64,000 bases of DNA, taken from a virus (taxonomy: Duplodnaviria; Caudoviricetes). The DNA lies in IMG/VR virus record IMGVR_UViG_3300032135_000291, positions 10,916 to 74,915 of that record; one strand, 5' to 3'. Every line of letters begins with the position of its first letter. Within the stretch, counting starts at the first letter, position 1. The translations under genes and the position numbers were made by a program. The notes below the pieces were generated by a model. It had not been told where the DNA came from. It worked only from the letters and a program-made list of their open reading frames with translations, and ran no database searches. This document shows, piece by piece, positions 13,802 through 62,674 of the stretch.

Positions 13802-13810
13802 GGATACCTT
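13802..13810 (+). promoter_or_regulatory. Class II motif GGA-TAC(C/T)NT, representative site (12 copies: 13802, 14894, 16023, 16754, 18043, 29985, 33622, 43963, 46200, 49962, 60977, and 62664 on minus strand)
   Basis: TAnnnT -10-like hexamer 5-6 nt before the start codon at 9 sites; leadered with SD at 3; the 62664 copy lacks the final T. Confidence 0.75.
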
Positions 13811-13816
13811 GACGCT

Positions 13817-14869
13817 ATGAGCCGTTGCAGCGCCCCAGTCTGGGGGCACAAGACCGACAAGTCGCGAGAGAAGTGTCCCGTGCACCGGCTGAGCACGAAG
13901 GTCCCCGGGCGCCTTGCCGCGCCGCCGTCACCGCGCGGATCTTCTGGCGGCTCGGTGGACGACTTCCCCGAGCACACGTTCTTGGATCCCGGGATGGTGG
14001 CCTCGATCGACTACTCCCGCACGACGCGAGGGCGCGACAAGTCGTACTCGCGTGAGTGGAAGGGCCTTCACACCGCGACGAAGGGGCAGATTCGCCCAGG
14101 TCGAATCAACACGGGGTACACGATCGCAAAGGTCGCAGACCTCGCGGGCGTCGTCCGCCTAGGACCGAAGCCCGTGGCGTTTGACGCCTGCGACTTCCCG
14201 TCCGGGACCATGACAAACACCTACGCGGCTGTGATGTACGAAGCGTGCCGTTTCGCCGACGGGCTGGAAGTTACCGCCCCCGGCTCAGAGATCAACCGTT
14301 GCGTGGTGATGGGGAAACTGGTGGTCGGCGGAGGCGTGCGAGCGAAAGGGACCTACGTCAGCGGTCGCATATACATCAACGACGTGAATTCGGCCCTTGA
14401 CGGTGTCGTCGTTGTCGGGCCCGTCAGTGCCCCGTGTAGCCCCGCCCTCGTGGTGGATTCGTACTCCGCGACGGGGTGGCTTCTTGGCCCAAACGTCTCT
14501 GGATTCAAGGACGGCTACTGTCGCCTCTCCCGTCCGGGGCAGTTGGTCGTCGTGCCGGACCACGAGTTGGACCGTCCGGTCGTAGAGGTCCCTGACGACG
14601 GCACGATCGGCGTGGTCACCGAGTCGGAGTCGTTGACCATGTTTGGCGACGCGTACGCGTCGCCCGTCAAGGAGGCTGCGGAGGTCGAACGCCGCATGCG
14701 GACGTTCTCGTCGCTCCTGGGCCGCCCCAAGGACGACTCTGACGGCCGGTGGCTTGACGGCCGCAACCATGGGGCCTGGACGACGCTGATCGACCTGGGC
14801 GGCATCGATGGCGACGAAGTCAACGAGGAGTCCCTTAGCGTGGCGTTGGCGCTGAGCCCGAACCCGTAA
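13817..14869 (+). CDS. Cys/His-tag family protein (class A; beta-solenoid-like centre; C-terminal LALSPNP)
   Basis: N-term CSAPVWGH..CPVH; C-term RPKDDSDGRWLDGRNHGAW..VALALSPNP; GGATAC motif upstream. Confidence 0.75.
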   Translation: MSRCSAPVWGHKTDKSREKCPVHRLSTKVPGRLAAPPSPRGSSGGSVDDFPEHTFLDPGMVASIDYSRTTRGRDKSYSREWKGLHTATKGQIRPGRINTGYTIAKVADLAGVVRLGPKPVAFDACDFPSGTMTNTYAAVMYEACRFADGLEVTAPGSEINRCVVMGKLVVGGGVRAKGTYVSGRIYINDVNSALDGVVVVGPVSAPCSPALVVDSYSATGWLLGPNVSGFKDGYCRLSRPGQLVVVPDHELDRPVVEVPDDGTIGVVTESESLTMFGDAYASPVKEAAEVERRMRTFSSLLGRPKDDSDGRWLDGRNHGAWTTLIDLGGIDGDEVNEESLSVALALSPNP

Positions 14870-14908
14870 GGCCGGCATCGCTCGCCGCCGGCTGGATACC
14901 ATCACGAC

Positions 14909-15949
14909 ATGAGCCTCCCGCGGTGCACCGCACCTACCGGTCACCGGACGCATTCGGGAAGGGCGAAGTGCCCGCTCCATAGTCACTCTCCGATACAGGG
15001 CCCGATCCGTCGCCCAGCGGTGCCGAAGGGCGTGGAAGTACCCGTGAACCAGGAAAGCGCCCTTGAAGCGTTGCTCACGCTGCCTCCCACGGCCACCCTC
15101 GCCGAGACGATGACCGCGTACTACCGGCTGGAGCGCCAGGCGCGCGAGTTCTTCGCGGGCAACGAGAGGACTCGCCTCGACGTATTGCGCGTACTCGCAG
15201 AGGAGCGCGGCGAGACGATTCGCGCTCGGGTCGCCATCAACAAGAGCGCCGACGAGCCGCTGCTTCGCACCCTCGCGGAGGACCCCGACCCCGAGGTGCG
15301 CAGGGTCGTCGCCCACAACTTCAAGTGCCCGCCCGACGTTCTGGATGCACTCTCGCGCGACGCGGTGAGGGAGGTGCGAAAGTCTGTCGGGATGTGTCAC
15401 CGAACGCCACTCCCCGCACTCGAGCGGTTGGTTCGCGACCCCGTGCGGTTCGTTCGAGGCGCGGCCATGACGAATCCTGTGTGGCCACGAGAGGACCTGG
15501 AAAGGCTAGGGGCCGAATTCCGGGAGACGACGGAAGAGGAGGGTCTGGCCGCGAACGTCAACCTCCCACCAGAGATGCTTCGGGAGATCGCCCTGCGCGC
15601 CCCGCGCACCCCCGGCAAGAAGGAGTCGCGCAAGTTCCGTGCCGCGGCGAACCCGTCGACACCGGAGGATGCCCTGCTGGTTTTGGCGGACACCGGGGAC
15701 TACAACTCGGGGCTCTTGCGAAACCCCAAGGTGCCGTCCATCGCCGTCCAGCGGATTGCGGAGGGCGGGGACGACCCGCACGTGCGGAAGCGGGCGCTCG
15801 AAGTCCGTGCCGCACGCATCTTCGAGGCCACCGGGGTACAGCCCGACAACGTGGGCGCTCAGGACTACCTCGTCGACACCGAGTGGTGGACGCTGACGCC
15901 GGACTCCCCCGAGGTGACGCTAGCCCTAGCGCTCTCCCCGGACTTGTGA
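14909..15949 (+). CDS. Cys/His-tag family protein with HEAT/LRV-like repeats; C-terminal LALSPDL
   Basis: N-term CTAPTGH..CPLH; repeats LAEDPDPEVRRVVAHN / LSRDAVREVRKSVG / LVRDPVRFVRGAAMTNP; C-term EWWTLTPDSPEVTLALALSP. Confidence 0.75.
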   Translation: MSLPRCTAPTGHRTHSGRAKCPLHSHSPIQGPIRRPAVPKGVEVPVNQESALEALLTLPPTATLAETMTAYYRLERQAREFFAGNERTRLDVLRVLAEERGETIRARVAINKSADEPLLRTLAEDPDPEVRRVVAHNFKCPPDVLDALSRDAVREVRKSVGMCHRTPLPALERLVRDPVRFVRGAAMTNPVWPREDLERLGAEFRETTEEEGLAANVNLPPEMLREIALRAPRTPGKKESRKFRAAANPSTPEDALLVLADTGDYNSGLLRNPKVPSIAVQRIAEGGDDPHVRKRALEVRAARIFEATGVQPDNVGAQDYLVDTEWWTLTPDSPEVTLALALSPDL

Positions 15950-15993: not shown

Positions 15994-16037
15994 CTCTCTC
16001 GCTAAAGGCTTAGGTAGCGCATGGATACCGTCCGGTC

Positions 16038-16748
16038 ATGAGCAGCAACCCAATGATTCAGCCCTGCCCCAACGGCGGCAAGTGCGGCGCACGCACCCAC
16101 GACGTGACCAAGAACCAGTTCCGTGAGTGCAAGCGGCTGGCCTCCTCGGGTATCAGGTCGATGGCCGGGGCGAGTGCAGCGCCCCCACCTCCGTCTGCTC
16201 CGCACGCCTTTGATGCCGCCGCGTTTGATGAGTCCATGGCGCAGGTGCGCACGCGACTGGCCTCCGCTGAGACTGACGCGCAAGAGGCAATACGCCGCCG
16301 GTTCGTTGGTCACGTAGATGCGCAAATTGCAGTGGCAGAAACCGTGTGCCGTCGCATCGAAAGACTGGACTGGGAACCGGATGGCGACAATGACGAGATG
16401 ACTCTGGCGCTGACGTGCGGTTGCAGCGGCGAAGGTGTCGACGCCAGACGCTTCTTGGACGAGCACGACGTCTCGTCAAATATCGCGCTGGGCGTGCTCG
16501 AATCCTCGCGGGAGTGGCGGGAGTTCCCGACGTTCTCCGGATCGTCCCCAGTCAGCGCCGTCGACGACGAGGAAGACGACTACGAGCAGGTCTGGCGGTG
16601 GGACGGCATGGGTAACCACATGGAGGCGTTTGGGTTGAGTGCGAACAACGACGGTGCGCGCGCCTTCCTGCGCGACTACGAGTGGTGGGATCTCAACTCG
16701 GAGTCCCCGGAGGTCGCTCTCGCGAAAACGCTTCATCCGGGCTCGTAG
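16038..16748 (+). CDS. Cys/His-tag family protein (class B)
   Basis: N-term QPCPNGGKCGARTHDV..FREC; C-term FLRDYEWWDLNSESPEVALAKTLHP. Confidence 0.75.
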   Translation: MSSNPMIQPCPNGGKCGARTHDVTKNQFRECKRLASSGIRSMAGASAAPPPPSAPHAFDAAAFDESMAQVRTRLASAETDAQEAIRRRFVGHVDAQIAVAETVCRRIERLDWEPDGDNDEMTLALTCGCSGEGVDARRFLDEHDVSSNIALGVLESSREWREFPTFSGSSPVSAVDDEEDDYEQVWRWDGMGNHMEAFGLSANNDGARAFLRDYEWWDLNSESPEVALAKTLHPGS

Positions 16749-16768
16749 CGCCTGGATACCGTCAGGGC

Positions 16769-17491
16769 ATGAGCAATCCGATGATCCAGCCCTGTCCTAA
16801 CGGCGGAAAATGTGGCGCACGCACCCACGACGTGTCGAAGGCTCAGTTTCACGAGTGCAAGCGGGCGGCGTTCGGGTTGCCGCCGACGGCCGTCTGGGCT
16901 TCTGCCCCCGTGCTGCAATCACCCGAGCCCATTGACCCAGTTGGGTCCACCGACTTCGAGGCCGCCATCAAGACTGCGTGCGACGCCGCGGGGGCGGCCG
17001 AGACGGCTTCTTATCACGCCAGGAAGAAGGCCTTCGCGGCGCAAATCGAGGCGGCGGTAGTGGTCGCCCGGGCTACCTGCAAGAGTCTCGAATCCATGAA
17101 GTGGACAGGAGACGATGAGGGCGGACAGTCAACGACGCTGGCCTTGTTCTGTGGGTGTGAGCAGGCTGAATGCGATCCCGAGGACGGACTCGATGCTGAC
17201 GGAGAGTTTCTGAGCGCGCACGGCATCGACTCCTGGAACGCGCAAGGCGCGCTCGACGGCAGGCCCGACAAGGGCGACTTCGAGTCATTTCACTGGGAGG
17301 CGGACCTCAACGAGCCCAGCAAATATGACTACAAGTGGACGCGCGACTTCTTCGACGAGCACGTCACGGCCCTCGGTGTTGACGAGTCAAATAAGCCCGC
17401 TCGTGATTTCCTGCGCGATTATGAGTGGTCGACGCTGACGCCAGAATCGCCAGAGGTGGCCCTAGCGAAGACGCTGCACCCCGACGTGTAG
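16769..17491 (+). CDS. Cys/His-tag family protein (class B), tandem paralog of 16038
   Basis: Near-identical N-term and C-term to 16038..16748; start at ATG 16769 behind GGATAC motif. Confidence 0.75.
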   Translation: MSNPMIQPCPNGGKCGARTHDVSKAQFHECKRAAFGLPPTAVWASAPVLQSPEPIDPVGSTDFEAAIKTACDAAGAAETASYHARKKAFAAQIEAAVVVARATCKSLESMKWTGDDEGGQSTTLALFCGCEQAECDPEDGLDADGEFLSAHGIDSWNAQGALDGRPDKGDFESFHWEADLNEPSKYDYKWTRDFFDEHVTALGVDESNKPARDFLRDYEWSTLTPESPEVALAKTLHPDV

Positions 17492-18033: not shown

Positions 18034-18057
18034 CCTTGGCGTGGATACCGTACGGGT

Positions 18058-18918
18058 ATGAAGTGTTCAGCGCCCGTGGAGGGGCACACCAGTCGGTCGG
18101 AAGAGTTGAAGTGTCCGGCGCACGGCAAGAGCGACCCCGCGCGGCGCTCTGCTCGTGCACCTTCCGCGCCGACCAGTCCTGACGGCGCATACCCCAACGC
18201 GGACGTCACGGCCAAGGCGTCCGCCAATGGCGCCGCCACTCGGGGGCTACGAGTGTCCGGCACGCTGACCGCAGCACACAACTCCGTCGTCGAGGACTGC
18301 GTTGCTGGCGCCATCACCGTGAATACCGGCGCCACCTTGACGGACTGCCACGCCATCGAGAGCGGCCAGCAGGAAGACCGCCCGCCAAACGCCTTCATCG
18401 AGGGGTACTGCAGCGACATCTCAATGACCAACTGCACTGCGCAGGGCATCAAGTTGCAGATCAGGAACTCGTCGATCGTCGACTGCCACGCACGAGGCAA
18501 CTTCGCGATGGAGAGTGCGGTGGAGAGCGAGGTCGTTGGGTGCACGTCAGATCGCATGATCGTGCTGGACGACGGATACAAGACTCGGGTCGTCATCACG
18601 GAGCCCGGGCAGATTTTCGTGTCTCCTAGATCCAACTTGGAGTGCGCCGTCGAGTGCCCGATAGACCTCACCATCATCCTTCCGTCCGACCACCCGTGGC
18701 ATAATCCCAGGAGCGGCGATGACGTGACGTGGATCAACAAGGAGATCGCTCTCCGCCGATCGCTGGTGCTGCGCCCAAAGGACGGCTCGCACGGTCTTTG
18801 GCTGGACGCACGCAATGAGAAAGCCTGGGAGGCTCTTCTCGAGTCCGCCGACCTGGAAGCCTGCTCGGTCGAGGACAGCGCCGTGTTCGTCGCGTTGGCG
18901 CTATACCCGAACCCCTAG
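18058..18918 (+). CDS. Cys/His-tag family protein (class A; beta-helix-like centre; C-terminal LALYPNP)
   Basis: CSAPVEGH..CPAH; RPKDGSHGLWLDARNEKAW..VALALYPNP. Confidence 0.75.
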   Translation: MKCSAPVEGHTSRSEELKCPAHGKSDPARRSARAPSAPTSPDGAYPNADVTAKASANGAATRGLRVSGTLTAAHNSVVEDCVAGAITVNTGATLTDCHAIESGQQEDRPPNAFIEGYCSDISMTNCTAQGIKLQIRNSSIVDCHARGNFAMESAVESEVVGCTSDRMIVLDDGYKTRVVITEPGQIFVSPRSNLECAVECPIDLTIILPSDHPWHNPRSGDDVTWINKEIALRRSLVLRPKDGSHGLWLDARNEKAWEALLESADLEACSVEDSAVFVALALYPNP

Positions 18919-21494: not shown

Positions 21495-21516
21495 GGAAAC
21501 ACCTACAAGGAGCGCG

Positions 21517-22485
21517 ATGTACCCCAAAGTTCGCTTGATCTGGGAGGACGAAGTCCGCCTCAGCGATGCGATCTTCCCTGCGCGCGAAGTTCGGTTGCGC
21601 CTTGGGGGCTCAGAGGCCACCACACAACTTGATCAGGACGTCTTGGCGAAGGCTCAGGTCGCGATGGACGAACTTGTCCTGTCGCACTCGACCCTCGCGC
21701 AACGCGCAGCCGACGAGGTGCTCTTTGGCTCTCCGTCGTCGGCGACCATCGATCGTGAAGACCTCGTCCAGGTCGGCATGATCGCCATGTACTCGTGCGC
21801 GAAGGCATTCGACGCGCGACGCCGCAGCGATGGCATCGACCGTGACACCGGTAACCGCTTCTCGTTCTACGCGAAGATGTACATCAAGCGCGCCATGTAC
21901 CGCACCCTGAAGGGTGGCGACGCGCTGATGACGGGATCCGTGGCAACACGCGACCGCACGCGAGAGTGGCTCAACCACCGCGACGCACTCGCCGAGGAAC
22001 TTGGCCGCAAGCCCACACTCGTCGAGGTGTCCGAGTATTGCGGCATTGCCATAGACACCATCGACATGACGCTGCTCGGACGCCGGGCCGTCATCAGCGC
22101 ACCATCGGGCACCAGCGACGACGGCGAGGAGATGGAGGTCGATGCAGGGGAGCCGGAACGCACTGGCGACGTTGACGACCAGATCCTCGCAGAGGCGTAC
22201 GCGCTCGCACTGGACCGGGTGCTGCGATCGGTCCTTATGCCCGATGAAGTCGACGCGTTCTCTCTCTGGATGGGAATTGACCGGGCCGTGCCGCGGTCCG
22301 TGCCCGAAGTGGCCAGAGAATTGGGCTTCAAGGTCGCTCCGACTATGGAACTCGTTGGCCGGGCCGTTGCGCGACTGCGCCACCCACAAAACTTGACACT
22401 GATTCGCGAGGCGGCACGTGATGCCCTCGATGCGATTGAGGGCGCTCACCAGGAGTTTGCTGCACTAGAAATGGCGCGTCGATAA
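21517..22485 (+). CDS. Sigma-70 family RNA polymerase sigma factor (divergent)
   Basis: EDLVQVGMIAMYSCAKAFD..RFSFYA (region 2), EELGRKPTLVEVS (region 3), RSVPEVARELG (region 4). Confidence 0.8.
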   Translation: MYPKVRLIWEDEVRLSDAIFPAREVRLRLGGSEATTQLDQDVLAKAQVAMDELVLSHSTLAQRAADEVLFGSPSSATIDREDLVQVGMIAMYSCAKAFDARRRSDGIDRDTGNRFSFYAKMYIKRAMYRTLKGGDALMTGSVATRDRTREWLNHRDALAEELGRKPTLVEVSEYCGIAIDTIDMTLLGRRAVISAPSGTSDDGEEMEVDAGEPERTGDVDDQILAEAYALALDRVLRSVLMPDEVDAFSLWMGIDRAVPRSVPEVARELGFKVAPTMELVGRAVARLRHPQNLTLIREAARDALDAIEGAHQEFAALEMARR

Positions 22486-27598: not shown

Positions 27599-27916
27599 TA
27601 TGCGGACTTTGAAGGCGGGGAGTACCCCGTCATGCAGGGCTCGCCGAGCCACCGCGACTCCGGGGCGACGCACCCACTGAACCCACTGCACCCGGAAGAG
27701 CGCGCCGTGCGCAGGGAGTTGTGTCGCCGCAAGAGCGATGACTCCGAGGGCCGGTATCTCCACCCGCACAATCAGGCAGCGTGGAGTGCACTGCTCGAGG
27801 GCGGGTACATCGAGCGGCACGAGGTGTTCTCCGACGATGGCTACGAGGATGGCGAAACGCACTCGTTGGACGACTCGCACCTGATGCTGGTCCTGGCCCT
27901 CTACCCGAACCCGTAG
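27599..27916 (+). pseudogene. 5'-truncated class A family member (C-terminal LALYPNP part only)
   Basis: Frame stays open up to the IS-like end; DSEGRYLHPHNQAAWSALL..LVLALYPNP; lacks N-terminal Cys/His tag and GGATAC motif. Confidence 0.65.
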
Positions 27917-29934: not shown

Positions 29935-29999
29935 GCGGGAAGACTACCACACAATTGCGATCGCTCATCCGCTATGCGCCGCCTGGATACTCTGTAACC

Positions 30000-30959
30000 G
30001 TGAGCGAGTGCACAGCGAAGTCCGGGCAGCACGTCTCCGAGCGCGCGGCGCAGAAATGTCCCGTGCACAAGGTCCGTGACGGAAGTGCACCAATGTCTCC
30101 GGCCCGCGCCGCGGGGCTCGCCAGGGCGAAGGCCGCACCGCCCGCCTTCGCCGGGCCGCTCAACTTGCCTCAGAACAGCGCGTCGTCATCCTCTCTGGTC
30201 CCCCTCAAAGGGTTCCACAACGTCGGGTTCCGGCTCGAAGCCAAGCACCGGGCCGTGTTTCGTCCAGGGACGTCATTCGGTGGCTGCACCTTCGAGGACG
30301 GCCTTGGCCGTTCAGATGACGGATCCGCCGACAAACACGCTGCATTGGCGCTCATCGACTGCGAGGTCTACGGCGACTCTCACCTGGGCACCGGGTCGCA
30401 CATCCTCGACAGCACCGTGCATGGCTCCTTGTCTCTCGACAACGCACGCGCAGAGCGCTGCACAATCGAAGGGTCGGCGGAGGTCCACTTCGGTGCCGAG
30501 TTGGTCGACTGCGAGGCCAAGCACGTGGGCGTGGACACTGGGGCGACGGCATCTTTCACGAAGCCGGTGGGCGTAGGGTCCGGGCCGCAGGTGCACATCA
30601 ACACGGGCCTCTGGGGGCAAACGCCTGCGAAGATCCACCTCGCGGCCGGCGGCGTCATCCACGCCTCCCCGGAGGACGTAGAGGTGACAGGTGCTCTCGA
30701 CTTCGTTGTGCTGGTCGAGCCGCCGAGCAAGGTCGCAGAAGATAGCGCCGTGTGGAGGTCGAACGAGAACATCGCCAGGGCGCGTTACGCGACGGCCGTG
30801 GCGACCGATCGCTCCGACCCCTTGTGGCTTTCGACCCAGAATACCGACGCGTGGCAGATGATCTTCGATGGCGGATACGTGGACGCAACGGACTCCGACC
30901 CGCAGCCCGTACCGGAAGAAGTCCGGTCGTGGGTGCTCGCGCTGTACCCCAATCCGTAG
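30000..30959 (+). CDS. Cys/His-tag family protein (class A; beta-helix-like centre; C-terminal LALYPNP)
   Basis: GTG start; CTAKSGQH..CPVH; LWLSTQNTDAW..WVLALYPNP. Confidence 0.75.
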   Translation: MSECTAKSGQHVSERAAQKCPVHKVRDGSAPMSPARAAGLARAKAAPPAFAGPLNLPQNSASSSSLVPLKGFHNVGFRLEAKHRAVFRPGTSFGGCTFEDGLGRSDDGSADKHAALALIDCEVYGDSHLGTGSHILDSTVHGSLSLDNARAERCTIEGSAEVHFGAELVDCEAKHVGVDTGATASFTKPVGVGSGPQVHINTGLWGQTPAKIHLAAGGVIHASPEDVEVTGALDFVVLVEPPSKVAEDSAVWRSNENIARARYATAVATDRSDPLWLSTQNTDAWQMIFDGGYVDATDSDPQPVPEEVRSWVLALYPNP

Positions 30960-33489: not shown

Positions 33490-33665
33490 CGGCAGTATCT
33501 CTTCCGTTCGTGGCCGGGATTGGCTATGCTGCTGAGGGAAGACTACCACACCTTTGCCGAATAGCAACAACGCGCGCGGAGACGCAAAGTGGCCCAGAGC
33601 GCAAACGGATATGGTGGGCTTGGATACTCTTGGAGTAGACAAACCTTCCACACGAGAGGACGACC

Positions 33666-35231
33666 ATGTCGAAGGCCTTGATTCCCTGCCCATTGGGTGC
33701 GCAGTGCCGCACCGGCTCCACCCTGGGGCACGAACCCGGAAGCGACGCGTTGCGTGACTGCACCGCAGCCGCAGTCGGCTCGGGACAGGCTTCGGCCACC
33801 CGCGGTCAGCACGACCCGACCGCCGCGTACCAGCAGTTAACCGACCCCATGAAGCGCCTGACCTCTCAGGTCAAGCGCGCGTTCGGCGCTGACGGCCGCG
33901 GTATCCCCAACCTTGTGGGCCCTCCCGGTATCGGCAAGTCGGCCATCGTCGAGAATATGGCGCGGTCCATGAACGCGGACTACATGATCTTTGACGTGTC
34001 ATCCCTGGATCCGGACATCTTCAACGGCATTCCGTACAACCCGGGTGGCGAGGTCCCCGAAGGCATGATGGTCATGGCAGGGCGCCTCTACGAGCGCGAG
34101 GTCGTGTCGATGTTCTCCCGCTCGGACAAGAAGGACAAGCCGCTACTCGTCTTCCTCGATGAGATCAACGGTGGCAAGGAAGCGCTGATGTCGTCCTTGC
34201 AGAAGGTCATGACCGGACGCATGTTGCCGCAGGAGGGTGTGTCGCTCAACGACAACGTCTTCCTGGTCGCAGCGATGAACGATGCAGACCAGACGTCCAA
34301 CGGTAACGACCTCGCCGCGGCCATGGTGTCGCGTCTGACGCCGATCCCCGTGAACCCGAACTTCGACGAGTGGACGAACGGAGAACTGACCTTCTGGGGC
34401 CAGGGGTACAACGAAGAGCGAACATCGGCTGTCGCGCGCGCCCTGGACCTCAAGGCTCCCACAGTCGAGCAGCACCTCATGGCGGCCGCCTCGGTGGCCT
34501 CCTACTTGGAGGACATGGGCAACCCCCGCTTGAAGTCGCTCTCGCGAGACGAAACCTCAATGAACCTCTTCTCGGAGCCGTTGGACGAGGACGACCTGAC
34601 CACCAAGGTGGGTCAGCCTCGGTCGTGGTCCAAGGCCATTTCCGGCATCGCTATGGCGATCGCGAACCCGGACGAAGGGGAGTCGGACACCAGCGCCTAC
34701 GCAGATGTCATCCGATCCAACTGTGGCGAGCGTGCCGCACGCGGCTTCGTCGCGTACCACGAGACTCACCGCGACCTCCCCGACATCAAGGGCGCCCTGG
34801 ACAAGGGGACGCTTGGGGACGCACCCACCGAATGGGCACGCAACGGTCGCAGCGACATCCCGATGTTCACCATGTCCGTCCTGGCGAACCAGAACTTCGA
34901 GAACGACATCGAGAAGATGGGTGTCGCGGTCGACCTCATCGGCGAGATCGCGGGGAAGTTCCCCGACATCGCTGGTGCGAAGGTCGCACCCATCGTGAAG
35001 CAGTGGACCGGCCAGATCCGCGACGAGTATGGCGTTTCCAGCGAGCAGGGCAAGGCGCTGTCGACAATGCTTGCCGAGAAGATCAATAAGAAGGGCAACG
35101 AGCCGCTTCGTGTCGCGGTCGGAAGGTCCGGCGTTGTTGCAGGCCTCGTCGACGGACGCTCGGACATCGACCAGATTGCGGTGAGCGCAGCGAAGGCTGC
35201 CGCGAACGACGACGACAAGAAGAAGAACTAG
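33666..35231 (+). CDS. AAA+ ATPase (MoxR/AAA_5-like) carrying N-terminal Cys/His tag
   Basis: PCPLGAQC..GHEPGS..DC; GPPGIGKS; VFLDEIN; LVAAMN. Confidence 0.85.
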   Translation: MSKALIPCPLGAQCRTGSTLGHEPGSDALRDCTAAAVGSGQASATRGQHDPTAAYQQLTDPMKRLTSQVKRAFGADGRGIPNLVGPPGIGKSAIVENMARSMNADYMIFDVSSLDPDIFNGIPYNPGGEVPEGMMVMAGRLYEREVVSMFSRSDKKDKPLLVFLDEINGGKEALMSSLQKVMTGRMLPQEGVSLNDNVFLVAAMNDADQTSNGNDLAAAMVSRLTPIPVNPNFDEWTNGELTFWGQGYNEERTSAVARALDLKAPTVEQHLMAAASVASYLEDMGNPRLKSLSRDETSMNLFSEPLDEDDLTTKVGQPRSWSKAISGIAMAIANPDEGESDTSAYADVIRSNCGERAARGFVAYHETHRDLPDIKGALDKGTLGDAPTEWARNGRSDIPMFTMSVLANQNFENDIEKMGVAVDLIGEIAGKFPDIAGAKVAPIVKQWTGQIRDEYGVSSEQGKALSTMLAEKINKKGNEPLRVAVGRSGVVAGLVDGRSDIDQIAVSAAKAAANDDDKKKN

Positions 35232-35249: not shown

Positions 35250-37181
35250 ATGAGCACGCCAGGCGTCACGCGCACCATCCCCGCCGGGGGCATCGCATGC
35301 CTCAGCAACGGGCGGTGTGGAGAGTCGACCGGCTGGCACCACATGGGCTCCGACGCGCACAAGCGCTGCATCCACGCTGCCGAGGCACTGGATGCGACCG
35401 GAGCGCGGGTCAGGGACGCCGTGACTGCGGGCAATATGCGGGCCAATCAGCAGCCAGGTGACCACGAGCGTCGTCCGCTGCGCCGACTGGAGCAGGACGA
35501 AAGCGAACTCCTCAACAGCACCCGCGCGATGGCCTTGAAGTTCCTGCCGTTCTACTCGCACATGATGTACCGCGTGCGCCCTGTCGCCGTAGACGAGGAG
35601 CCGACGATCCTGCCCGATGGCACACCCCAGTGGGAGATGCGTGCCGCTATCTCTCGGGACTGGCGCCTCATGCTCAACTTTGACTGGATGCGCTACGAGT
35701 TCGAGCAGGGCTACGAGAACAACAAGGACCGTGTTGCCAAGGCAATGATCGAGTCAGACGTCACGCCGACCGACGAAGCGGTTCGCCGCGGCTGCGACAC
35801 GGCGACGTCCGTCCAACTCGGGAAGGTGCTCCTCCACGAGATGGGGCACGCGATGTACAACACGTGGGAAGTCGCCGAGGAGAGGAAACTCGACGGCCAG
35901 ACCCTGAACCGCGCAGAGGACGCTGTCATCAACAACGCGTTGCGCGTGCTGGGTCACGGCAAGGCCCCGCTCGAGAACAAGGACATCAACGGCGAGTTCC
36001 TCCCGAACGCTGTCTACGGTGGAACCGTGGAGTGTGACGACCCCAACCACTCATGGCACTACATCGACCCGGAGACGGGCGAAACGTCTTCGCGTTGCTC
36101 GTATGAGCAGACGATTTGGCACTACTACGAGCGCCTCGACAAGCAGGAGAAGGAAGACTCAAAGCAGGGGTCAACCGGCGACGGCGACCCCGACGGTGCG
36201 CCAGACGCCGCGAAGGGCGAGGCAAAGGGCGATCAGAAGGGCCAGGCTGGCGGCTCGCAAAGAACCGAAGGCTCTCCCTCTGGTTCCACGCCCGGGGCCG
36301 AAGGCGACGGTGACGGCGAAGGAGGCGAAGGCGCCAAGCCCTCTGACGCATGTGGACGCAAGGCTGCCGAGAAGTACGAGGACGACCCATACGAGAAGGG
36401 GAGCATCAGCGAGTCGCAGAAGCAGGACTCGCTCGACGTGACCGCATCGGAACTTGACGAGTGGGGCAAGGAGAACGAGGAACGCGCCAAGAAGGCAGGC
36501 TTCGGCTCCGATTCGATGGCCCGCAAGTGGGCCCAGCACCGCCGCAAGATCGACGGGATTCACTGGGACGCGCTGCTCAAGAGGACCATACGCAAGACCG
36601 TGGAGTCCAAGAAGAGCACGCGCGAGACCTACACAAAGGTTCGCCGGCGCGACGCCTCCAACTCCGGGATCCTGCGTCGCGGCACCAAGGCGGGCTACAT
36701 GCCCTCGATCGCCGCGGCAGTCGACACCTCGGGTTCGATGTCGCCAGACGACCTCTTCGCCGCGTACAACAGCGTGTACTCCGTCATCAAGAGGACGGGC
36801 ATCAACCACCTGGACGCGTTCGCTGTCGACTCCGAAGCGAAGACCAAGCCGATTGCGATCAAGAAGGCCGAAGACTTGGCTCCGCTACTTCGCGGTGGAG
36901 GCGGTACTGACATGTGCGCCGGCATTGAGGTGGCAGCACAGGCGGACAAGGACGTCTGCATCGTCTTCACTGACGGAGTCGTCCCGTGGGGCAAGATGGC
37001 CGAGCGCCCGAGTGACACCAAGAAGATGGACGTGATCATCGCCATCATCGCGGAGAACGATGATGCGTGTGCGCGCTTGGCGGACGACGTGCCCTCCTGG
37101 ATGAGCACGGTCAAGATCAACAAGGAACTGCTCGACGAGGGCCGCGAGAAGAAGACCCCCAAGGACGGGTACCTTGGCTAG
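35250..37181 (+). CDS. Metallopeptidase-vWA protein (DUF2201-like) with N-terminal Cys/His tag
   Basis: CLSNGRC..HHMGSDAHKRC; LLHEMGH; acidic/Gly linker; AVDTSGSM and GGGGTDM MIDAS motifs. Confidence 0.85.
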   Translation: MSTPGVTRTIPAGGIACLSNGRCGESTGWHHMGSDAHKRCIHAAEALDATGARVRDAVTAGNMRANQQPGDHERRPLRRLEQDESELLNSTRAMALKFLPFYSHMMYRVRPVAVDEEPTILPDGTPQWEMRAAISRDWRLMLNFDWMRYEFEQGYENNKDRVAKAMIESDVTPTDEAVRRGCDTATSVQLGKVLLHEMGHAMYNTWEVAEERKLDGQTLNRAEDAVINNALRVLGHGKAPLENKDINGEFLPNAVYGGTVECDDPNHSWHYIDPETGETSSRCSYEQTIWHYYERLDKQEKEDSKQGSTGDGDPDGAPDAAKGEAKGDQKGQAGGSQRTEGSPSGSTPGAEGDGDGEGGEGAKPSDACGRKAAEKYEDDPYEKGSISESQKQDSLDVTASELDEWGKENEERAKKAGFGSDSMARKWAQHRRKIDGIHWDALLKRTIRKTVESKKSTRETYTKVRRRDASNSGILRRGTKAGYMPSIAAAVDTSGSMSPDDLFAAYNSVYSVIKRTGINHLDAFAVDSEAKTKPIAIKKAEDLAPLLRGGGGTDMCAGIEVAAQADKDVCIVFTDGVVPWGKMAERPSDTKKMDVIIAIIAENDDACARLADDVPSWMSTVKINKELLDEGREKKTPKDGYLG

Positions 37182-43922: not shown

Positions 43923-43976
43923 CGAGAAGTACGCTCCGCCGCAGATCGGCCCGGAGCCGGGTGGATACCTTGAAGC

Positions 43977-44579
43977 ATGAGCAAGTGCACCTCGAGAACC
44001 GGCCGTCACCTCCCCGGTTCGTGGACCGAGCAGGAGTGCCCCGAGCACGGCTTGCTTGCCGCCAGGAGGGCCACCGCGGCGGCCCCCACAGCGAGCATGA
44101 GCGCCCCTCAGCCGGCTCCGGGACGTGACCAGCCGCCCGCCTACGAAGGGACGCTGGGGAGCCTTCCGGAAGAGATCGTAGAGGACCTGATTTCTCGTCG
44201 TTCGCGACGAGGTGCGAGCCGAGAAGAGAGCGCGGCGCTCCTCGGAGAGTTCGTGCGGTCACACTCCGGCGCCAACCTCGCATCCGCGCTGGTCTACAAC
44301 AACTTCGCCAGGACGCCGAACGTGGACCGTATCGTTCGCGACATCGACGCGACCCGGCCGCCAACCCGCCGCCCGTCACCGAAGCCGCAGTCAGCGCGGA
44401 TCGAGACGCTACGAGGCGGAGACACGTTCGAGGACGGAGAGTTCCGCGCTCGCGAAGAGGTCCTCGAAGTCACCGACCAGGGCGACAACATCTACGTCAC
44501 CACAGACGCCTCCCAGGACGCCGGTGCGGGTGCATACCGGTTCCGCAAGGGCGAGACCGTTTGGGCGACCACCGCGTAA
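43977..44579 (+). CDS. Cys/His-tag family protein
   Basis: CTSRTGRHLPGSWTEQECPEH; GGATAC motif upstream. Confidence 0.7.
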   Translation: MSKCTSRTGRHLPGSWTEQECPEHGLLAARRATAAAPTASMSAPQPAPGRDQPPAYEGTLGSLPEEIVEDLISRRSRRGASREESAALLGEFVRSHSGANLASALVYNNFARTPNVDRIVRDIDATRPPTRRPSPKPQSARIETLRGGDTFEDGEFRAREEVLEVTDQGDNIYVTTDASQDAGAGAYRFRKGETVWATTA

Positions 44580-44808: not shown

Positions 44809-45237
44809 ATGCCCACATGCAATATCCGTCACGAACCAGGGTCGGACGCACAGAAGAAGTGCGCCGTGCACGGCCGTCGAGTGGGCCGCGGGGTGGCAGC
44901 GAGTCTCACGCCGCCAATGCTTCGGCAGAAGACTCCGGAGGCCGCGATCCCGGAGTTGCCCGACGACGTGGCAGAGGGCCTTCTTCGCCGCCGCACGCAG
45001 AAGGGGTACTCCCACGATGCGTCGGTCGAACGGCTTGCGGAGATTGCGTCCGACGCCGAACTATCAGCAGTGGAAGTCAAGTACGCCTTGGTCAACGAGG
45101 ACTTCGAGGACAGCGTCGTCAGTGCCGGGCTCGTGAGCGAGATGGTGCGGGGCGGACGCAGGATCAAGGACCTTTCGGCTCAGATCGAGGCGGCAGAGTC
45201 GCGCTCTCCCGCGAAGGTCGCCGAAGCGACTGACTAG
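44809..45237 (+). CDS. Cys/His-tag family protein
   Basis: MPTCNIRHEPGSDAQKKCAVH; SD aggag. Confidence 0.65.
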   Translation: MPTCNIRHEPGSDAQKKCAVHGRRVGRGVAASLTPPMLRQKTPEAAIPELPDDVAEGLLRRRTQKGYSHDASVERLAEIASDAELSAVEVKYALVNEDFEDSVVSAGLVSEMVRGGRRIKDLSAQIEAAESRSPAKVAEATD

Positions 45238-46165: not shown

Positions 46166-46238
46166 GCGGGCGGACAAACGCACCACATGGGCGGCGCGTG
46201 GATACCCTGGCGGAGAGAACATCCGAGGAGGCTGCCCC

Positions 46239-46814
46239 GTGCCCGCAGAGTGCCGAGTGAAACACGTCCCAGGCTCGCAGTCAGAGAGCCTGTGCCGGAC
46301 GCACGGCGCGCGCGGCCGCGGACGTGGCTTCCGCCCTCCGGCACCCACACAGGAGACGGTGCAACGCGGATCCGTGGAGATGCCGGCCTGCGACGGGGAC
46401 TCCTCCGAGCAGCGGGCCGAGATGCTTGCCGCGAACGGACCGATCGACACCCTTGCGGCGCAGCAGGGGCTGCTTCCGCTGAATGACCGCGGCGTCTCGC
46501 TGCGCAAGGCGGCCACCGGTAAATGGCTCGTCCGCCTGACAATGCTCGAAGGCGAACCCGAGGCGGGGGAGTACGGGTTCGGGCGCACGCCCGAGGAGGC
46601 CTTCTACGCGGCGCTGACCGACTACACCGACGCTCCCGACGGCGCGGACGTCCTGATCAGCCGGGATCCAGAGAACTCGCTCGTATCAGCGTCGGACGTC
46701 AGCGCGGTGTACGTGCTCGACCTGCATGACGAACGCGACTCCGAAGCGGCCAGGCCCAGCGACGATTCGGCCCGTGCATGGCTCTGTCGTCCTGATGGAG
46801 TGTTCTCCCTCTAA
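46239..46814 (+). CDS. Cys/His-tag family protein
   Basis: GTG start with SD gaggagg; CRVKHVPGSQSESLCRTH; GGATAC motif upstream. Confidence 0.65.
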   Translation: MPAECRVKHVPGSQSESLCRTHGARGRGRGFRPPAPTQETVQRGSVEMPACDGDSSEQRAEMLAANGPIDTLAAQQGLLPLNDRGVSLRKAATGKWLVRLTMLEGEPEAGEYGFGRTPEEAFYAALTDYTDAPDGADVLISRDPENSLVSASDVSAVYVLDLHDERDSEAARPSDDSARAWLCRPDGVFSL

Positions 46815-47462: not shown

Positions 47463-47509
47463 GGTGCCCACTTGCATCGCCGAGAGGCGACGTGTGTGGG
47501 CACCTTTTT
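47463..47509 (+). terminator. Intrinsic-terminator-like hairpin inside array
   Basis: ggtgcccac..gtgggcacc followed by ttttt. Confidence 0.55.
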
Positions 47510-47582
47510 GCCGGTGAAGCACAATTGGCCGTGCGCTCGACCTGTAATCGAGAGGCAGAGGGTTCGACCCCCTCCACCGGCT
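47510..47582 (+). tRNA. tRNA-Thr(TGT), C33
   Basis: Loop CC-TGT-AA. Confidence 0.85.
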
Positions 47583-47614
47583 CCTAGCCCCCGCGGGCCG
47601 CCCCACGCTCACTC

Positions 47615-47687
47615 GCCCTCGTGGCTCAGCGGATAGAGCAGCGGATTTCTACCCCGAAGGTCGCAGGTTCGAATCCTGCCGAGGGCA
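47615..47687 (+). tRNA. tRNA-Arg(TCT), weak anticodon stem
   Basis: Loop TT-TCT-AC; only 3 clean anticodon-stem pairs. Confidence 0.75.
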
Positions 47688-47777
47688 CACATCACGCCAA
47701 CGCCGCGATCGGCCATTCCGTCGCGCGCGCACAAAGCATGGCGCAAGCATCAACAACTCGAAGGGAGGTGCAAGGCC

Positions 47778-49950: not shown

Positions 49951-49991
49951 GGCAGGCCCGCGGATACTCTGTAAAGAACAGAGAGGTATTC

Positions 49992-51353
49992 GTGACACGA
50001 AAGCAGAACACGGGCACGCAGGCGGGTCTCCTTGACTGCCCTGCGTGCGGTCGCGCGCACCGCGTTGGGTCCGACAGGTACAAGTTGTGCCAGGCGCGGC
50101 TTCAACCCGGGGGCGGGGCGCACCCTGCCGTTCGCGCGCGTCCCGTCGTTGTTGCTTTCGGGGAACTCTCCCGCACGGGCGAGGGGGAGCGACCAGCGCG
50201 CGAGCCGATGCCTCACCCGGTCTTCTCTGCCCAGGCGCTGCCACGCGACGTCCAGGCGGCCCCGCAGGACTCGCACGAGACCATTCCAACGACGCGTCCC
50301 GAGTCCAAACGGCTCGTTGCCACACTGCGTGCAGCGGCCGCCTCGGCGGTCCGCGAGTGGCGCGCCAAGGGCGCGGAGCCCACCCAGCACATGATGTTCG
50401 ACATGGACGTGTACCGCGACGAGGTCATCGACCTCCTCGATATCCACATAGAGACCACGCGAGACGCCGAGCAAGCGCTGGCCTCGCGCGGGCTCGGATC
50501 CGCCACCGCAGGGTCGAGCGAGCACGCCGAACGGCTGTGCTACCACGCCATCAGGACAGTCAAGGGCCTCGCCATCCACCCGTCTGTCATGGCTCGCATT
50601 CTCGCGAGGGCAGATATTGGCTCCGGCTACGACTCCCGCGACTTCACCAAGTTCGCGATCGGCCTCCGCGCCGTCGCTCACACCAACCCCGCAGTCCGCC
50701 GCGTGCTGTCCAAGCCCACAGAGGACGTCGACCCGAGCGACCTCAACGCCGTCGCGGCGCTCCTGCGCAATTTTGCCGCCACACGCTCCGGGCGCGTGCG
50801 ACTCGACGAGGCGGGCCGCGCGAGAAGCGAAGTGCTTCGCGAGCACCTCGCCGGCTTCGGTCCGGACGCAATCACCGAGGTCAACGAAACGATCGAACGG
50901 ATCCATGCCGCAGCAGCCGCTCACGGGGAGTACTCGCCGCTGTCGGCGTCCGACGACTGTGGCGGGCTACTCGCGCTGCCGTCCGTTGTGGCCGGAGACC
51001 TCCTTGCGCACGGGCTCTCGTATGCCCAGTGGCGCGATCTTGGGTGGTCTCAGTACGCAGGAGACTCGCCCCTCATGCTGCTCGAGCCGGCGCTGGTCGC
51101 AATGCGTCGCGACGGAATGCCTGACGAGATGATCCTCGCGATTCGGCCAGATGTGGGGTCGGACGACACCGAGTATCCGTACTCCGTTTCACGATTCCTG
51201 GCAGGCCCCGGCGCATACGCCGTCGGCGGCCAAAGCGAACGGGGCGTTGAGGCGTTCGGCTCCGACGTCATCACGAACGAGGCGGAACAGATCCGTGAGC
51301 GGTTCGAGCGCGACACCCGCGGACGCAAGACGGACCGGCTTCCCGGCGTCTAA
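49992..51353 (+). CDS. Cys/His-tag family protein
   Basis: GTG start with SD gagagg; CPACGRAHRVGSDRYKLC; GGATAC motif upstream. Confidence 0.65.
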   Translation: MTRKQNTGTQAGLLDCPACGRAHRVGSDRYKLCQARLQPGGGAHPAVRARPVVVAFGELSRTGEGERPAREPMPHPVFSAQALPRDVQAAPQDSHETIPTTRPESKRLVATLRAAAASAVREWRAKGAEPTQHMMFDMDVYRDEVIDLLDIHIETTRDAEQALASRGLGSATAGSSEHAERLCYHAIRTVKGLAIHPSVMARILARADIGSGYDSRDFTKFAIGLRAVAHTNPAVRRVLSKPTEDVDPSDLNAVAALLRNFAATRSGRVRLDEAGRARSEVLREHLAGFGPDAITEVNETIERIHAAAAAHGEYSPLSASDDCGGLLALPSVVAGDLLAHGLSYAQWRDLGWSQYAGDSPLMLLEPALVAMRRDGMPDEMILAIRPDVGSDDTEYPYSVSRFLAGPGAYAVGGQSERGVEAFGSDVITNEAEQIRERFERDTRGRKTDRLPGV

Positions 51354-60318: not shown

Positions 60319-60995
60319 CAGATGCCGCGGTCGCGGTAGGTCTCGGCGTCTCCCTGCTGCTGGTCGAGTTGGGTCGCAGCGTCCCTGCCTGGTTGCGGGT
60401 TCGCCGCACTCAGTCCGTCGACGGGTACAGCGCGGTCAGCCAGGGCATCCTTCTGGGCACGGCTCCGGCATGGCTCCTCGTCGCAGTCATCGAGGGCGCC
60501 CCGTGGATCTTCGCGGCCACCGCACTGTGGGCCGCACTGCATGTGGCGCTCGTCGCCGAGGGTTTCCGGGTCGATCCCGCTTTCGGTCTTCGGGCGCTGA
60601 GGGTTGGTGGCGTCTCGCTCGCTACGGCAGGCGTCGCAGCACTGGTGGGTGCAACACTCTTCGACTCGCTAGGGCTCGCACTGGGTTTGATGGTCGTCGC
60701 GGCGACCGCGGGGTACTCGCTCCCGGCGTTGGTGGCGGGGATGCGCTCCGCGTCGACTCGGGGGCTGAGCGTCATCGAACTCGGCATCAATGTGTTCGAG
60801 GGCGTCGTCTACGTGCTCGCCGGGCTCGGGGTCGTAGCCCTGGTCGCCTCGTCGCAAGGGGCTCTCAGTTACGTGCTCTTCGGCGCTGTGGCCGTCGTCT
60901 CCAATGCGCCTCGTCTCGTCCGCACTTCATACCGTCGGGTGCGTGGTCTCGACACCCCGCCCGTGTTGAGCGCCGCGGATACCTTGGTGGTATGA
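60315..60995 (+). CDS. PQ-loop/SWEET-like membrane protein
   Basis: Two repeats P..LRVRRTQSVDGYS / P..VAGMRSASTRGLS; about 7 TM segments. Confidence 0.6.
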   Translation: MTDAAVAVGLGVSLLLVELGRSVPAWLRVRRTQSVDGYSAVSQGILLGTAPAWLLVAVIEGAPWIFAATALWAALHVALVAEGFRVDPAFGLRALRVGGVSLATAGVAALVGATLFDSLGLALGLMVVAATAGYSLPALVAGMRSASTRGLSVIELGINVFEGVVYVLAGLGVVALVASSQGALSYVLFGAVAVVSNAPRLVRTSYRRVRGLDTPPVLSAADTLVV

Positions 60996-61666
60996 GCACT
61001 CCTGCATGCAGCGCCCCGGTATGGGGTCACAGGTCCAACTACTCACGCCAGCAGTGCCCGTCGCCGGCGTGCAATGGCGGCAGGCCGACCATGAGGCAGG
61101 CGGCACTCGCGGCACTGCCGCCGCGGATCTTGACGCGGCTGGACGCGTACGTGCCGGAGCAAGGGTTCTTCGAGCCGGAGGACGAGGAGTCCGCCGAACT
61201 CGAGCGGGACCTGTTCAAGCGCGGACTGACGCCTTTCGGCTACGAGGTGTGGAGCCACCCCGGCCAAGACGGGCGTCACGTTTCGGAGGGCGTGCAGGTG
61301 TACGACTTCCCGCACAACGACTACCTCGCGGTCTACGTCGGTTCGGCCCTCAGCGTCCGGGCGCCTCGCGAAGTTGACGGGCGCAAGGTGTCGGTCGGTC
61401 GGCTCATTGACGGGAACCGTCTGTCCTTGGGGGCGCGCTCCGTCGACACGTACCCGCAGGAGAACTGGTCGTTGCGCCCTCGCCCTGCCGAGCCCGTGGC
61501 CGAGCCTGCGATCGATGCGGAGTCCCCGGAGTTCCAGAGTTACTACGACAAGAACTACGAGTGGCTCGCGGACCGGTGCGACCCGGAGCCCGGTGAGGAC
61601 TGGGACAAGCACATGCTCGAAACCGCGAAGTTCTACTTCGCCGAGGAGCAGTCCGAGATCTCGTAG
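60992..61666 (+). CDS. Cys/His-tag family protein
   Basis: CSAPVWGH..CPSPAC, N-term closely matching 13817; GGATAC motif upstream. Confidence 0.7.
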   Translation: MSTPACSAPVWGHRSNYSRQQCPSPACNGGRPTMRQAALAALPPRILTRLDAYVPEQGFFEPEDEESAELERDLFKRGLTPFGYEVWSHPGQDGRHVSEGVQVYDFPHNDYLAVYVGSALSVRAPREVDGRKVSVGRLIDGNRLSLGARSVDTYPQENWSLRPRPAEPVAEPAIDAESPEFQSYYDKNYEWLADRCDPEPGEDWDKHMLETAKFYFAEEQSEIS

Positions 61667-61683
61667 TCGCGGGGCGGTCGGAC

Positions 61684-62649
61684 CTACGGGTTGGGGTACA
61701 GAGCCACCGCGAGTTCGATCTCCGCGTCACCGACTGGCGCTGCGGGGAAGTCCTGCTGACGCGGCTCGTAGAGCATGTCCCATGCGCCGCTGTTCCTCGC
61801 GTCAATCCACGGGCCCTGACTGCCGTCCTTGGGTCGCGTGACGATCGCCTTCATTTCTGCGATGCGTGCCGTCACCCATGAGTCGTCACCTTCGGCCGCC
61901 GCGAGGAGCGGCTCGAACATGGGGCTGCCTTCGGGGATCAGGATCGTCGTCTGGACCGGGTACTCGCGCCGGGGTGCCTGGGCGAGGTCTCCACGGAATG
62001 CGAGCACTTGTCCGGGGTGCGTGATGTTGATGCTCGGGTTTGCGGCGGTCGCGATGATCGCAAGTCCCGCAGTGCATCGATCGACCTCAACAGGAGTGTC
62101 GCCGTTGCCGACACGGATGGTTCGATACGCGTGACAGTTGGTCAGCCTCGACTCTTTCCTAGGGGCGTTGCGCGCGATGCCCGGGATCGGGGCTGTCGCC
62201 GCCACGATGTGCGTCGCGGTGGAGTTGCTCGCTGACGCTCCCGTCGGGATAGACAGGCGCTGAGAGGGCTCGTCGTTGTACTCGTCGGAGTAGACGCCGA
62301 GGTCGACAACGTGGCAGTTGTCAACGTGGCCATCCATCCACGTTTGGATCTCGCCGTCGACCATGCAGCCCTCCGCGGAGGTGCCAGGGTGCAGGGTGAG
62401 TTTGCCGATGATGCGCAGGTGCCGCGCCGGGCGGTTCAGTCCGTCCGCCCTCCAGCCCGACTCATCTTCGAGTTCCACACGCCCGGACATGAAGCCGTCG
62501 AGGACCTCGGGTGGCGCCAGTGGCGCATTGGGTTTCGCGGGACGGACGGGCTCGAGCCGAGCCAGCGCCACACCGCGATGCAGCGGGCAGAGGGCTTCGT
62601 CGTCGAGGGATATGTGGCTCCCGGTGGGAGCCGTGCATTCCGTTGTCAT
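61684..62649 (-). CDS. Cys/His-tag family protein (class A; beta-helix-like centre; C-terminal VALYPNP)
   Basis: CTAPTGSH..CPLH; RPKDGSQGPWIDARNSGAW..LAVALYPNP; GGATAC upstream (alternative start 62652). Confidence 0.75.
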   Translation of the reverse strand: MTTECTAPTGSHISLDDEALCPLHRGVALARLEPVRPAKPNAPLAPPEVLDGFMSGRVELEDESGWRADGLNRPARHLRIIGKLTLHPGTSAEGCMVDGEIQTWMDGHVDNCHVVDLGVYSDEYNDEPSQRLSIPTGASASNSTATHIVAATAPIPGIARNAPRKESRLTNCHAYRTIRVGNGDTPVEVDRCTAGLAIIATAANPSINITHPGQVLAFRGDLAQAPRREYPVQTTILIPEGSPMFEPLLAAAEGDDSWVTARIAEMKAIVTRPKDGSQGPWIDARNSGAWDMLYEPRQQDFPAAPVGDAEIELAVALYPNP

Positions 62650-62674
62650 CATTATTTTGTATCCTAGGTGTGTG

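Follow-up and report, generated by a model that had tools for sequence, protein, structure and literature searches.

The IMG/VR virus record IMGVR_UViG_3300032135_000291 is a single contig of 74,915 bp, and we analyzed its bases 10916–74915, a stretch of 64,000 nucleotides with a G+C content of 64% that we refer to as the window. We regard the contig as part of a large actinobacterial phage-like element that has not been cultured; it could also be plasmid-like in nature. About a quarter of the contig's genes encode proteins that begin with a Cys/His module of ~25 residues, which we call the tag or knuckle. A first-pass annotation of the window had reported such a start on about 15 open reading frames (ORFs), and all 15 were confirmed. 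Four further tagged ORFs are located just upstream of the window, at 3942, 4739, 5383, and 5920 (L009 coordinates), bringing the contig to 19.

Run against the six-frame translation, a hidden Markov model (HMM) built from the 19 tags scored each of them at 17 bits or more, and the next best stretch reached at most 11 bits. A regular-expression scan of all six frames found the pattern almost confined to the starts of long ORFs with a coding-type G+C content at third codon positions. The tag sits no more than about 40 codons after the preceding stop, with the long ORF following it.

The tag, the tail, and the proteins that carry them

Alignment of the 19 tags revealed an invariant core, C-x3-7-H-x8-10-C. 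A fourth putative zinc ligand is provided either by a His or Cys three residues past the last Cys (CPxH or CPxC) or by an extra Cys upstream. Outside these invariant ligand positions, the tags are only ~25% identical to one another. Most are basic, with isoelectric points of 8.7–11.8 in 16 of the 19, and most of the bodies that follow are acidic (4.2–5.6). Between the two lies a Pro/Ala-rich linker. In an AlphaFold2 model of the protein encoded at 18058, linker residues 28–42 have a predicted local distance difference test score (pLDDT) below 50 and are disordered, with the tag itself at 73–77. Modelled alone from an alignment of 45 sequences, the tag again reached a pLDDT of 73, with short helices at residues 14–19 and 21–28.

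The first-pass annotation had recognized neither terminal module as a named family, and our searches agree: the tag, a C-terminal tail described below, and the orphan bodies had no significant match in Pfam, the PDB, or PHROG. For the tag, Pfam returned nothing at E ≤ 10 beyond scattered zinc-ribbon noise, and a 34-residue knuckle model, too small for such a comparison, matched nothing in the PDB at Z ≥ 2. The ESM Atlas gave no usable feature match, its short structural rows to TIR clusters serving only as a lead, and word-based searches for homologues, whether started from 18058, from the tag alignment, or from the 16038 tag, returned almost exclusively self matches. We also considered the retroviral zf-CCHC knuckle and rejected it, as its spacing is C-x2-C-x4-H-x4-C and Pfam gave no match.

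Selection on the tag is visible in a tandem gene pair, 16038 and 16769. Their tags are 91% identical in amino acids and their bodies 30%, yet 33% of the identical tag codons differ synonymously, compared with 65% in the body. A tag that is preserved as protein while its codons have diverged is under purifying selection and not simply a recent copy. The tags fall into three types, which we provisionally treat as one module because they share an H-x-PGS-x5-C motif, the same position, and the same promoter class, and because they interchange on one type of body.

All but one of the tag genes in the window are on the plus strand. Four of them encode a type-1 knuckle, a beta-helix, and a C-terminal module that we call tail 1: 13817..14869 (350 aa), 18058..18918 (286 aa), 30000..30959 (319 aa, GTG start), and the sole minus-strand tag gene, 61684..62649 (321 aa from its second ATG; hereafter 62649(−)). 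They are full-length paralogues, 23–29% identical over 320–350 aa. In each, the tag is followed by a right-handed beta-helix and then by three C-terminal helices, as modelled for 18058 (pLDDT 85). Compared by VIA, the 18058 model reached Z scores of about 12 with alginate epimerases and lyases, tailspikes, Ag43, and pentapeptide proteins; these are generic beta-helix matches from which no catalytic family could be assigned, and Foldseek gave no match at E ≤ 0.001. The first-pass annotation had described constant ends around a variable middle. That description holds in that tag and tail are portable on unrelated bodies, but not for these four paralogues, whose differences reflect ordinary divergence.

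The other bodies are diverse, and here the types proposed at first pass were upheld by Pfam (LRV/HEAT, MoxR-like AAA+, DUF2201 peptidase–vWA, and pentapeptide), as was the beta-helix by the AlphaFold2 model. A type-1 knuckle precedes LRV/HEAT repeats and a second tail form, tail 2, at 14909..15949 (346 aa). The tandem pair consists of a type-2 knuckle with an acidic body of unknown fold and tail 2 at 16038..16748 (236 aa) and its paralogue, also with a type-2 knuckle and tail 2, at 16769..17491 (240 aa). Type-2 knuckles likewise begin all three products of an operon encoding a MoxR-like AAA+ ATPase (33666..35231, 521 aa), a DUF2201 metallopeptidase-like/vWA-like protein (35250..37181, 643 aa), and a pentapeptide-repeat protein (37174..38280, 368 aa). 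Bodies of unknown type follow a type-1 knuckle in its HLPGS variant at 43977..44579 (200 aa), a type-3 knuckle (C-x3-H-x-PGS-x5-C-x2-H) at 44809..45237 (142 aa), and a type-2 knuckle in a CxxC variant at 49992..51353 (453 aa); unknown acidic bodies follow a type-3 knuckle at 46239..46814 (191 aa) and a type-1 knuckle at 60992..61666 (224 aa), the latter with a near-identical copy in contig L011.

The tails reported at first pass on seven ORFs and a tagless relic were all recovered. Tail 1 is shared by 13817, 18058, 30000, 62649(−), and the relic, which corresponds to an ORF at 27632..27916 (plus strand, 94 aa) that has neither tag nor beta-helix and is either a relic or a free tail; tail 2 is carried by 14909, 16038, and 16769. 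The two forms are related (hhalign probability 94%, E = 1.4e-7, 39 columns). Counting the related contig L005, which has tandem tag-plus-tail genes with MORN-like bodies, the tail is found on beta-helix, LRV/HEAT, MORN-like, and unknown bodies, and such homology across different bodies marks it as a real shared module of ~40–55 residues with conserved N..A..L and AL.L.PNP. Apart from the ORF at 27632, the tail is confined to N-tagged proteins. It has no relative in Pfam or the PDB, and a kinship to ankyrin/TPR consensus sequences was rejected as not significant (E 0.17–0.35). As a DNA pattern, the tail matched nothing in GTDB genomes and, in metagenomes, only a near-identical fragment (L011) and one chance match (L010).

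A profile of the beta-helix family, searched against 1.84 billion proteins, retrieved 26 representatives. Leaving aside proteins of the window itself and fragments nearly identical to them, these are metagenomic, and most are tagged; the same body occurs with a type 1, 2, or 3 tag. The contigs that encode them come from rock-porewater and subsurface metagenomes, where L003 and L006–L008 originate, and from one other sequencing run. One related contig, L006, is syntenic with the window at 27.9–32.5 kb and carries an orthologue (P0016) of the 30000 protein. In another, the 9.9-kb L002, a tag–beta-helix–tail gene adjoins ThyX, a T2SSE/MshEN-type ATPase, and a PilM-like gene.

Promoter classes and gene content of the element

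The first-pass annotation had noted GGATAC directly upstream of twelve tag genes. The bare hexamer is not enriched (27 copies seen, about 30 expected), but the longer motif GGATACYNT occurs 13 times on the plus strand and never on the minus strand, compared with a mean of 1.07 and a maximum of 4 in 200 third-order Markov simulations. All 13 copies precede tag ORFs. Eleven of them lie in the window, where a variant also precedes 62649(−); together these account for the twelve noted at first pass. We refer to this motif as the class-1 promoter.

The first window copy, CGGATACCTT, is at 13802..13811, 15 nt upstream of the start codon as counted from its first G. Further copies, all on the plus strand, are found at 14894..14903 (before 14909), 16023..16032 (before 16038), 16754..16763 (before 16769), 18043..18052 (before 18058), 29985..29994 (before 30000), and 60977..60986 (before 60992). 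The spacing of 15 nt is shared by seven window genes, and in one more, 43977, with its promoter at 43963..43972 on the plus strand, it is 14 nt. On the minus strand, the variant GGATACAAAA (62655..62664) lies 15 nt ahead of the second ATG of 62649(−). In most cases TACYNT thus occupies positions −12 to −7, counted from the A of the start codon, a placement characteristic of leaderless transcripts. Three genes instead have leaders of 30–44 nt with a ribosome-binding site (RBS): 33666, whose promoter at 33622..33631 (44-nt leader) heads the three-gene operon, 46239 (46200..46209, 39-nt leader), and 49992 (49962..49971, 30-nt leader), all on the plus strand. The remaining tag genes, 35250, 37174, and 44809, are internal to leader-bearing units, the last with an RBS but without a separate promoter motif. 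No conserved −35 element was found upstream of the class-1 boxes.

The arrangement is also conserved elsewhere. The class-1 promoter precedes tag genes in contigs L001, L003, L005, and L006, and the contigs of the beta-helix relatives retain TGGATACYNT-N6-ATG before the tag gene. Upstream of the window, L009:4739-4873 is a 44-residue ORF that consists of a knuckle only and has its own class-1 promoter, with the start codon 16 nt past the first G; it may encode a free tag peptide or be a truncated gene.

A second promoter-like motif, GTGTGGTAGNNT, has the extended −10 form TGnTAnnnT and occurs ten times, five per strand, at window positions 18942, 19668, 30979, 49618, and 55857 (plus) and 29952, 33551, 55826, 59629, and 63661 (minus). 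It was found only ahead of untagged genes, among them those for an M50B peptidase, a methylase, DnaB, an IstB-like protein, a WhiB fusion, and an SNF2 helicase. With GGATACYNT only at tag genes and GTGTGGTAGNNT only at untagged ones, the element has two classes of promoter, and the first is reserved for tag genes. This bears out the earlier proposal that the tag genes form a set of their own: they are defined by sequence and by a promoter distinct from that of replication and regulatory genes. The paired classes also offer a readable two-tier transcription program for a virus lineage without cultured members.

The element encodes a FliA/WhiG/SigF-like sigma factor (21517..22485, plus strand), which we suggest, by inference only, as a candidate reader of the class-1 promoter. 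Upstream of its own gene, at window 21470–21500, are TGATAGCAT, a canonical extended −10 box, and an AAGGAG RBS; neither of the repeated promoter motifs stands in front of it.

Other genes in the window encode FtsK/SpoIIIE-type ATPases, the M50B peptidase, an N6/N4 methylase, GyrB and GyrA, DnaB with its IstB-like loader, DnaG, a RecA-like protein, Lsr2, the SNF2 helicase, an RNase T-like exonuclease, and the WhiB fusion protein. The last, at 32728–33693 on the minus strand, has 321 aa and a C-terminal WhiB domain, and is far longer than a usual WhiB. Adjacent paralogues at 7583–9541 and 9613–12231 contain five and eight DUF4379 treble-clef zinc-finger repeats, respectively, and an MTES_1575 restriction-endonuclease-like part. 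The gyrase genes occupy 22518–27022, and the same element encodes the tagged pentapeptide-repeat protein at 37174–38280; the pentapeptide-repeat fold is known from gyrase-binding DNA mimics. A co-oriented array of 35 tRNA genes (ARAGORN) spans 39176–47688, with one extra weak tRNA match in Rfam at 39876–39946 and a tmRNA at 47029–47428; three tag genes are scattered within it. The upstream 10.9 kb of the contig encode a ResIII helicase, an M23 peptidase, an ArdC-N protein that is itself tag-bearing, and, at the contig start (L009:196-633), a small RF-1-domain (GGQ) protein of the peptidyl-tRNA hydrolase/ArfB-like type. We found no capsid, portal, prohead-protease, or other virion genes on the 75-kb contig, which is incomplete. 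Searches of phage, plasmid, and IMG/VR collections found no near relatives of the element, and no phage or plasmid DnaB exceeds 31% identity to its own.

Knuckle-TIR proteins outside the element

A degenerate DNA pattern of the type-1 tag, searched in one-per-species GTDB genomes, matched at least 120 loci (L013–L132). About 100 of these encode proteins of ~200–260 residues that start M-A-R-C-T-A-P-V-x-G-H-R-T-A-S-G-x-A-x-C-P-A-C-G-G, and 88 matches pass a strict test for a position at the ORF N-terminus. The layout of these solo proteins, at ~230 aa, is nearly uniform: a knuckle, a Gly/Ser/Tyr-rich linker, and a TIR domain, the last nearest to AbTIR and TcpB. Their hosts include Clostridia, Proteobacteria, Actinomycetota, Bacteroidota, Planctomycetota, Saccharibacteria, and other groups. 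The gene is present on 362 PLSDB plasmids, 180 of them conjugative, is often found beside serine recombinases, and is rare in phages. It has an ordinary RBS and no GGATAC promoter, and no conserved neighbor was found in 99 loci.

The PADLOC model PDLC00424 (ThsB1|ThsB) matches the knuckle-TIR proteins end to end (E = 1e-104), and the N-terminal Cys/His module corresponds to its positions 1–42. Seven of 23 element tags match positions 1–23 of this model, with a best E value of 1e-4, and no other PADLOC family was matched. Compared directly by hhalign, the element tags and the TIR knuckles are homologous (96.2%, E = 2.3e-9), with the element tags 24–48% identical to the very uniform TIR knuckle. 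Within the window's tagged proteins, Pfam scans found no TIR domain, nor does any other protein of the window have one, and scans of the window found no SIR2, SLOG, or Macro protein. The knuckle-TIR proteins are annotated only as "TIR domain-containing protein," and a literature search found no paper on their N-terminal module, which thus appears to be undescribed.

Knuckles that end in CPVH, as element tags do, were found only in Actinomycetota among the matches (L026, L062, and L099). One of them, from Mycolicibacterium wolinskyi (L062:1108-1614), belongs to a protein of 169 aa that has a Pro-rich linker and two predicted membrane helices, lacks a TIR domain, and is not of phage origin. The first-pass annotation had counted an equal occurrence of the modules in host genes as evidence against a dedicated system. 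The tag does occur in host genes and, given the widespread solo TIR proteins and this mycobacterial membrane protein, is not private to the element; but the hosts have one or two knuckle genes per genome (five searched), compared with 19 in the element's 75 kb.

Interpretation and comparison with known systems

The reading we favor, with a confidence that is about even, is that the knuckle is an adaptor or docking module directed toward a common conserved target, which would be a nucleic acid or a protein. We favor it because the tag looks like an independently folding, portable, selected, and flexibly tethered unit on proteins with a private promoter, and because, by analogy, its closest published parallel is the logic of the effector-associated domains (EADs) of MoxR–vWA systems (PMC7159879). 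The element would then express a regulon that comprises 13 or more transcription units, with YGGA-TACYNT as the −10-type box ahead of each and, in most, a predicted transcript start that coincides with the A of the start codon. In every unit, the leading gene encodes a basic, putative zinc knuckle of ~25 residues, a flexible Pro/Ala-rich linker, and a usually acidic body, whether beta-helix, LRV/HEAT, MoxR ATPase, vWA-peptidase, pentapeptide, ArdC-N, or unknown. Through the knuckle, these unrelated, simultaneously made proteins would be tethered to a single shared site or partner, for which a conserved nucleic acid or protein is the most likely candidate. Eight proteins of the set have a further module in common, a C-terminal domain of two helices whose sequence ends ..AL.L.PNP. 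Given its presence on both the element's proteins and host TIR proteins, the knuckle is probably a portable docking module used in phage–host conflict.

Several observations weigh against this adaptor reading. Type 1/3 and type 2 tags align with an hhalign probability of only 15% (E = 0.0017), and 25 residues are few for a domain that docks specifically. Across the five host genomes searched, the solo TIR protein had no non-TIR knuckle partner. The contig, in addition, is incomplete and without virion genes, and the element may be a phage or plasmid-like. We nevertheless find each of four alternatives less well supported.

One alternative is a strict homotypic coupling of the EAD type, in which knuckles bind each other and so join the MoxR/vWA-peptidase core to the other tagged proteins. 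The operon of MoxR, vWA-peptidase, and pentapeptide genes is tagged in three of three genes, and the many paralogous copies per genome, terminal on core and effector-like proteins, are EAD-like; TIR effectors are typical EAD cargo, but the EADs described are helical or alpha+beta and not zinc knuckles (PMC7159879). Moreover, knuckle-TIR hosts have no second knuckle protein save a TIR paralogue, and the lack of a knuckle partner there argues against simple homotypic coupling. We consider it unlikely.

Quite unlikely, too, is a role proposed at first pass, an export address by which the tag, the tail, or both would either load proteins into the capsid, to be co-injected, or send them to a recipient through an FtsK/VirD4-like translocase. 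The constant N-terminal end, variable body, and shared timing do resemble T4 capsid-targeting leaders and packaged anti-restriction proteins, and the contig has FtsK/SpoIIIE-type ATPases, an M23 peptidase, and the tagged ArdC-N protein, ArdC being a protein that is transferred during conjugation. However, no motif or cleavage site is conserved after the tag, the linkers are variable, the incomplete contig has no capsid, portal, or prohead-protease gene, and the tail alignments contain no YxxxD/E or WXG-type motif of type VII secretion signals. A packaging or translocation signal is thus without support. The knuckle also occurs on the solo TIR and the membrane protein in many phyla, outside any such machinery, and translocases that depend on unfolded signals would handle a folded zinc module poorly.

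The homology of the tags to the TIR N-terminus suggests a further possibility, counter-defense by mimicry, in which the element would flood the cell with knuckle copies that block or divert TIR sensing or assembly. The CPVH form common to the Actinomycetota versions and the 44-aa tag-only ORF with its own class-1 promoter fit such a role, but a decoy needs no 19 different large bodies, and the tags have diverged far from the uniform TIR knuckle; we judge it improbable. Least probable of all is that the tag is an evolutionary by-product without a common function, spread by duplication or recombination of a cassette of promoter and first codons. In its favor, a leaderless promoter has to carry its own start codon, every class-1 promoter is joined to a tag, tandem duplications are present (16038/16769 and L005), and the lower synonymous divergence of tag than body hints at some gene conversion. 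Against it, the ligands are invariant across tags of ~25% identity, genes inside operons or preceded by RBS leaders are tagged as well (35250, 37174, 44809, and 33666), and the module is conserved on TIR proteins without a class-1 promoter.

The adaptor reading can be extended to both sides of the homology, as a long shot. The knuckle would gather a quarter of the element's proteome at one intracellular site, and the knuckle-TIR proteins would be immune tripwires that carry a copy of the tag and are recruited into or triggered by tag-dependent assembly, with clustering switching on the TIR NADase. If so, bacterial immunity would detect phages through imitation of the signal by which they address their proteins, with this element as the viral side. 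Short of that, an apparently undescribed module of 25 residues links a mobile TIR protein, matched by the Thoeris ThsB model, to an apparently co-regulated quarter of the genes of an uncultured element. If it is a docking module, the identity of its partner would explain how the solo TIR protein senses or is positioned, and would show how a large phage organizes effector-like proteins such as DNA-mimic-like repeats, ArdC-N, and MoxR/vWA; the module could also serve actinobacterial cell biology as a small, portable tag.

Among known systems, the solo knuckle-TIR proteins are most directly comparable, sharing with the tags the motif M-x-x-C-[TS]-A-P-x-x-G-H-x8-C-P-x-[CH] at the very N-terminus and a low-complexity linker after it. 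They are, however, a near-uniform single-gene family, whereas the element has 19 diverged copies on many bodies. Relative to Thoeris, the knuckle-TIR genes have no conserved ThsA-type partner (99 loci), and the element shares only the N-terminal module of the ThsB model. EADs are small non-enzymatic terminal modules in MoxR–vWA and related conflict systems, which are cellular systems of multicellular bacteria; they occur in many copies per genome, on core proteins and on effectors including TIR, and have been proposed to be coupling adaptors (PMC7159879). The element's tag is similarly placed on MoxR (33666), the vWA-peptidase (35250), and 17 other proteins. It is set apart from EADs as described by being a Cys/His knuckle in a phage-like element with a dedicated promoter.

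Two other likenesses are analogies only. T4 capsid-targeting leaders are ~10 unstructured residues that are cut by the prohead protease at a conserved site. Like the tag, they are a short common N-terminal element on unrelated proteins of one temporal class; unlike them, the tag is a predicted folded metal-binding module, lacks a conserved cleavage site, and also occurs in non-phage proteins. At the other end of the protein, XVIPCD is the conserved C-terminal recognition domain of effectors of the Xanthomonas type IV secretion system, and the ..N..AW..L..ALAL.PNP tail resembles it as one C-terminal module on variable bodies, but the tail has only ~40–55 aa and no identified cognate coupling protein.

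Finally, actinobacterial leaderless genes use TANNNT −10 boxes. The class-1 promoter is alike in placing TACYNT at −12 to −7 of the ATG or GTG without a conserved −35 element; the second class of the element takes the canonical form TGnTAnnnT. To the general leaderless promoter, class 1 adds an invariant GGA and an exclusive tie to one protein module.

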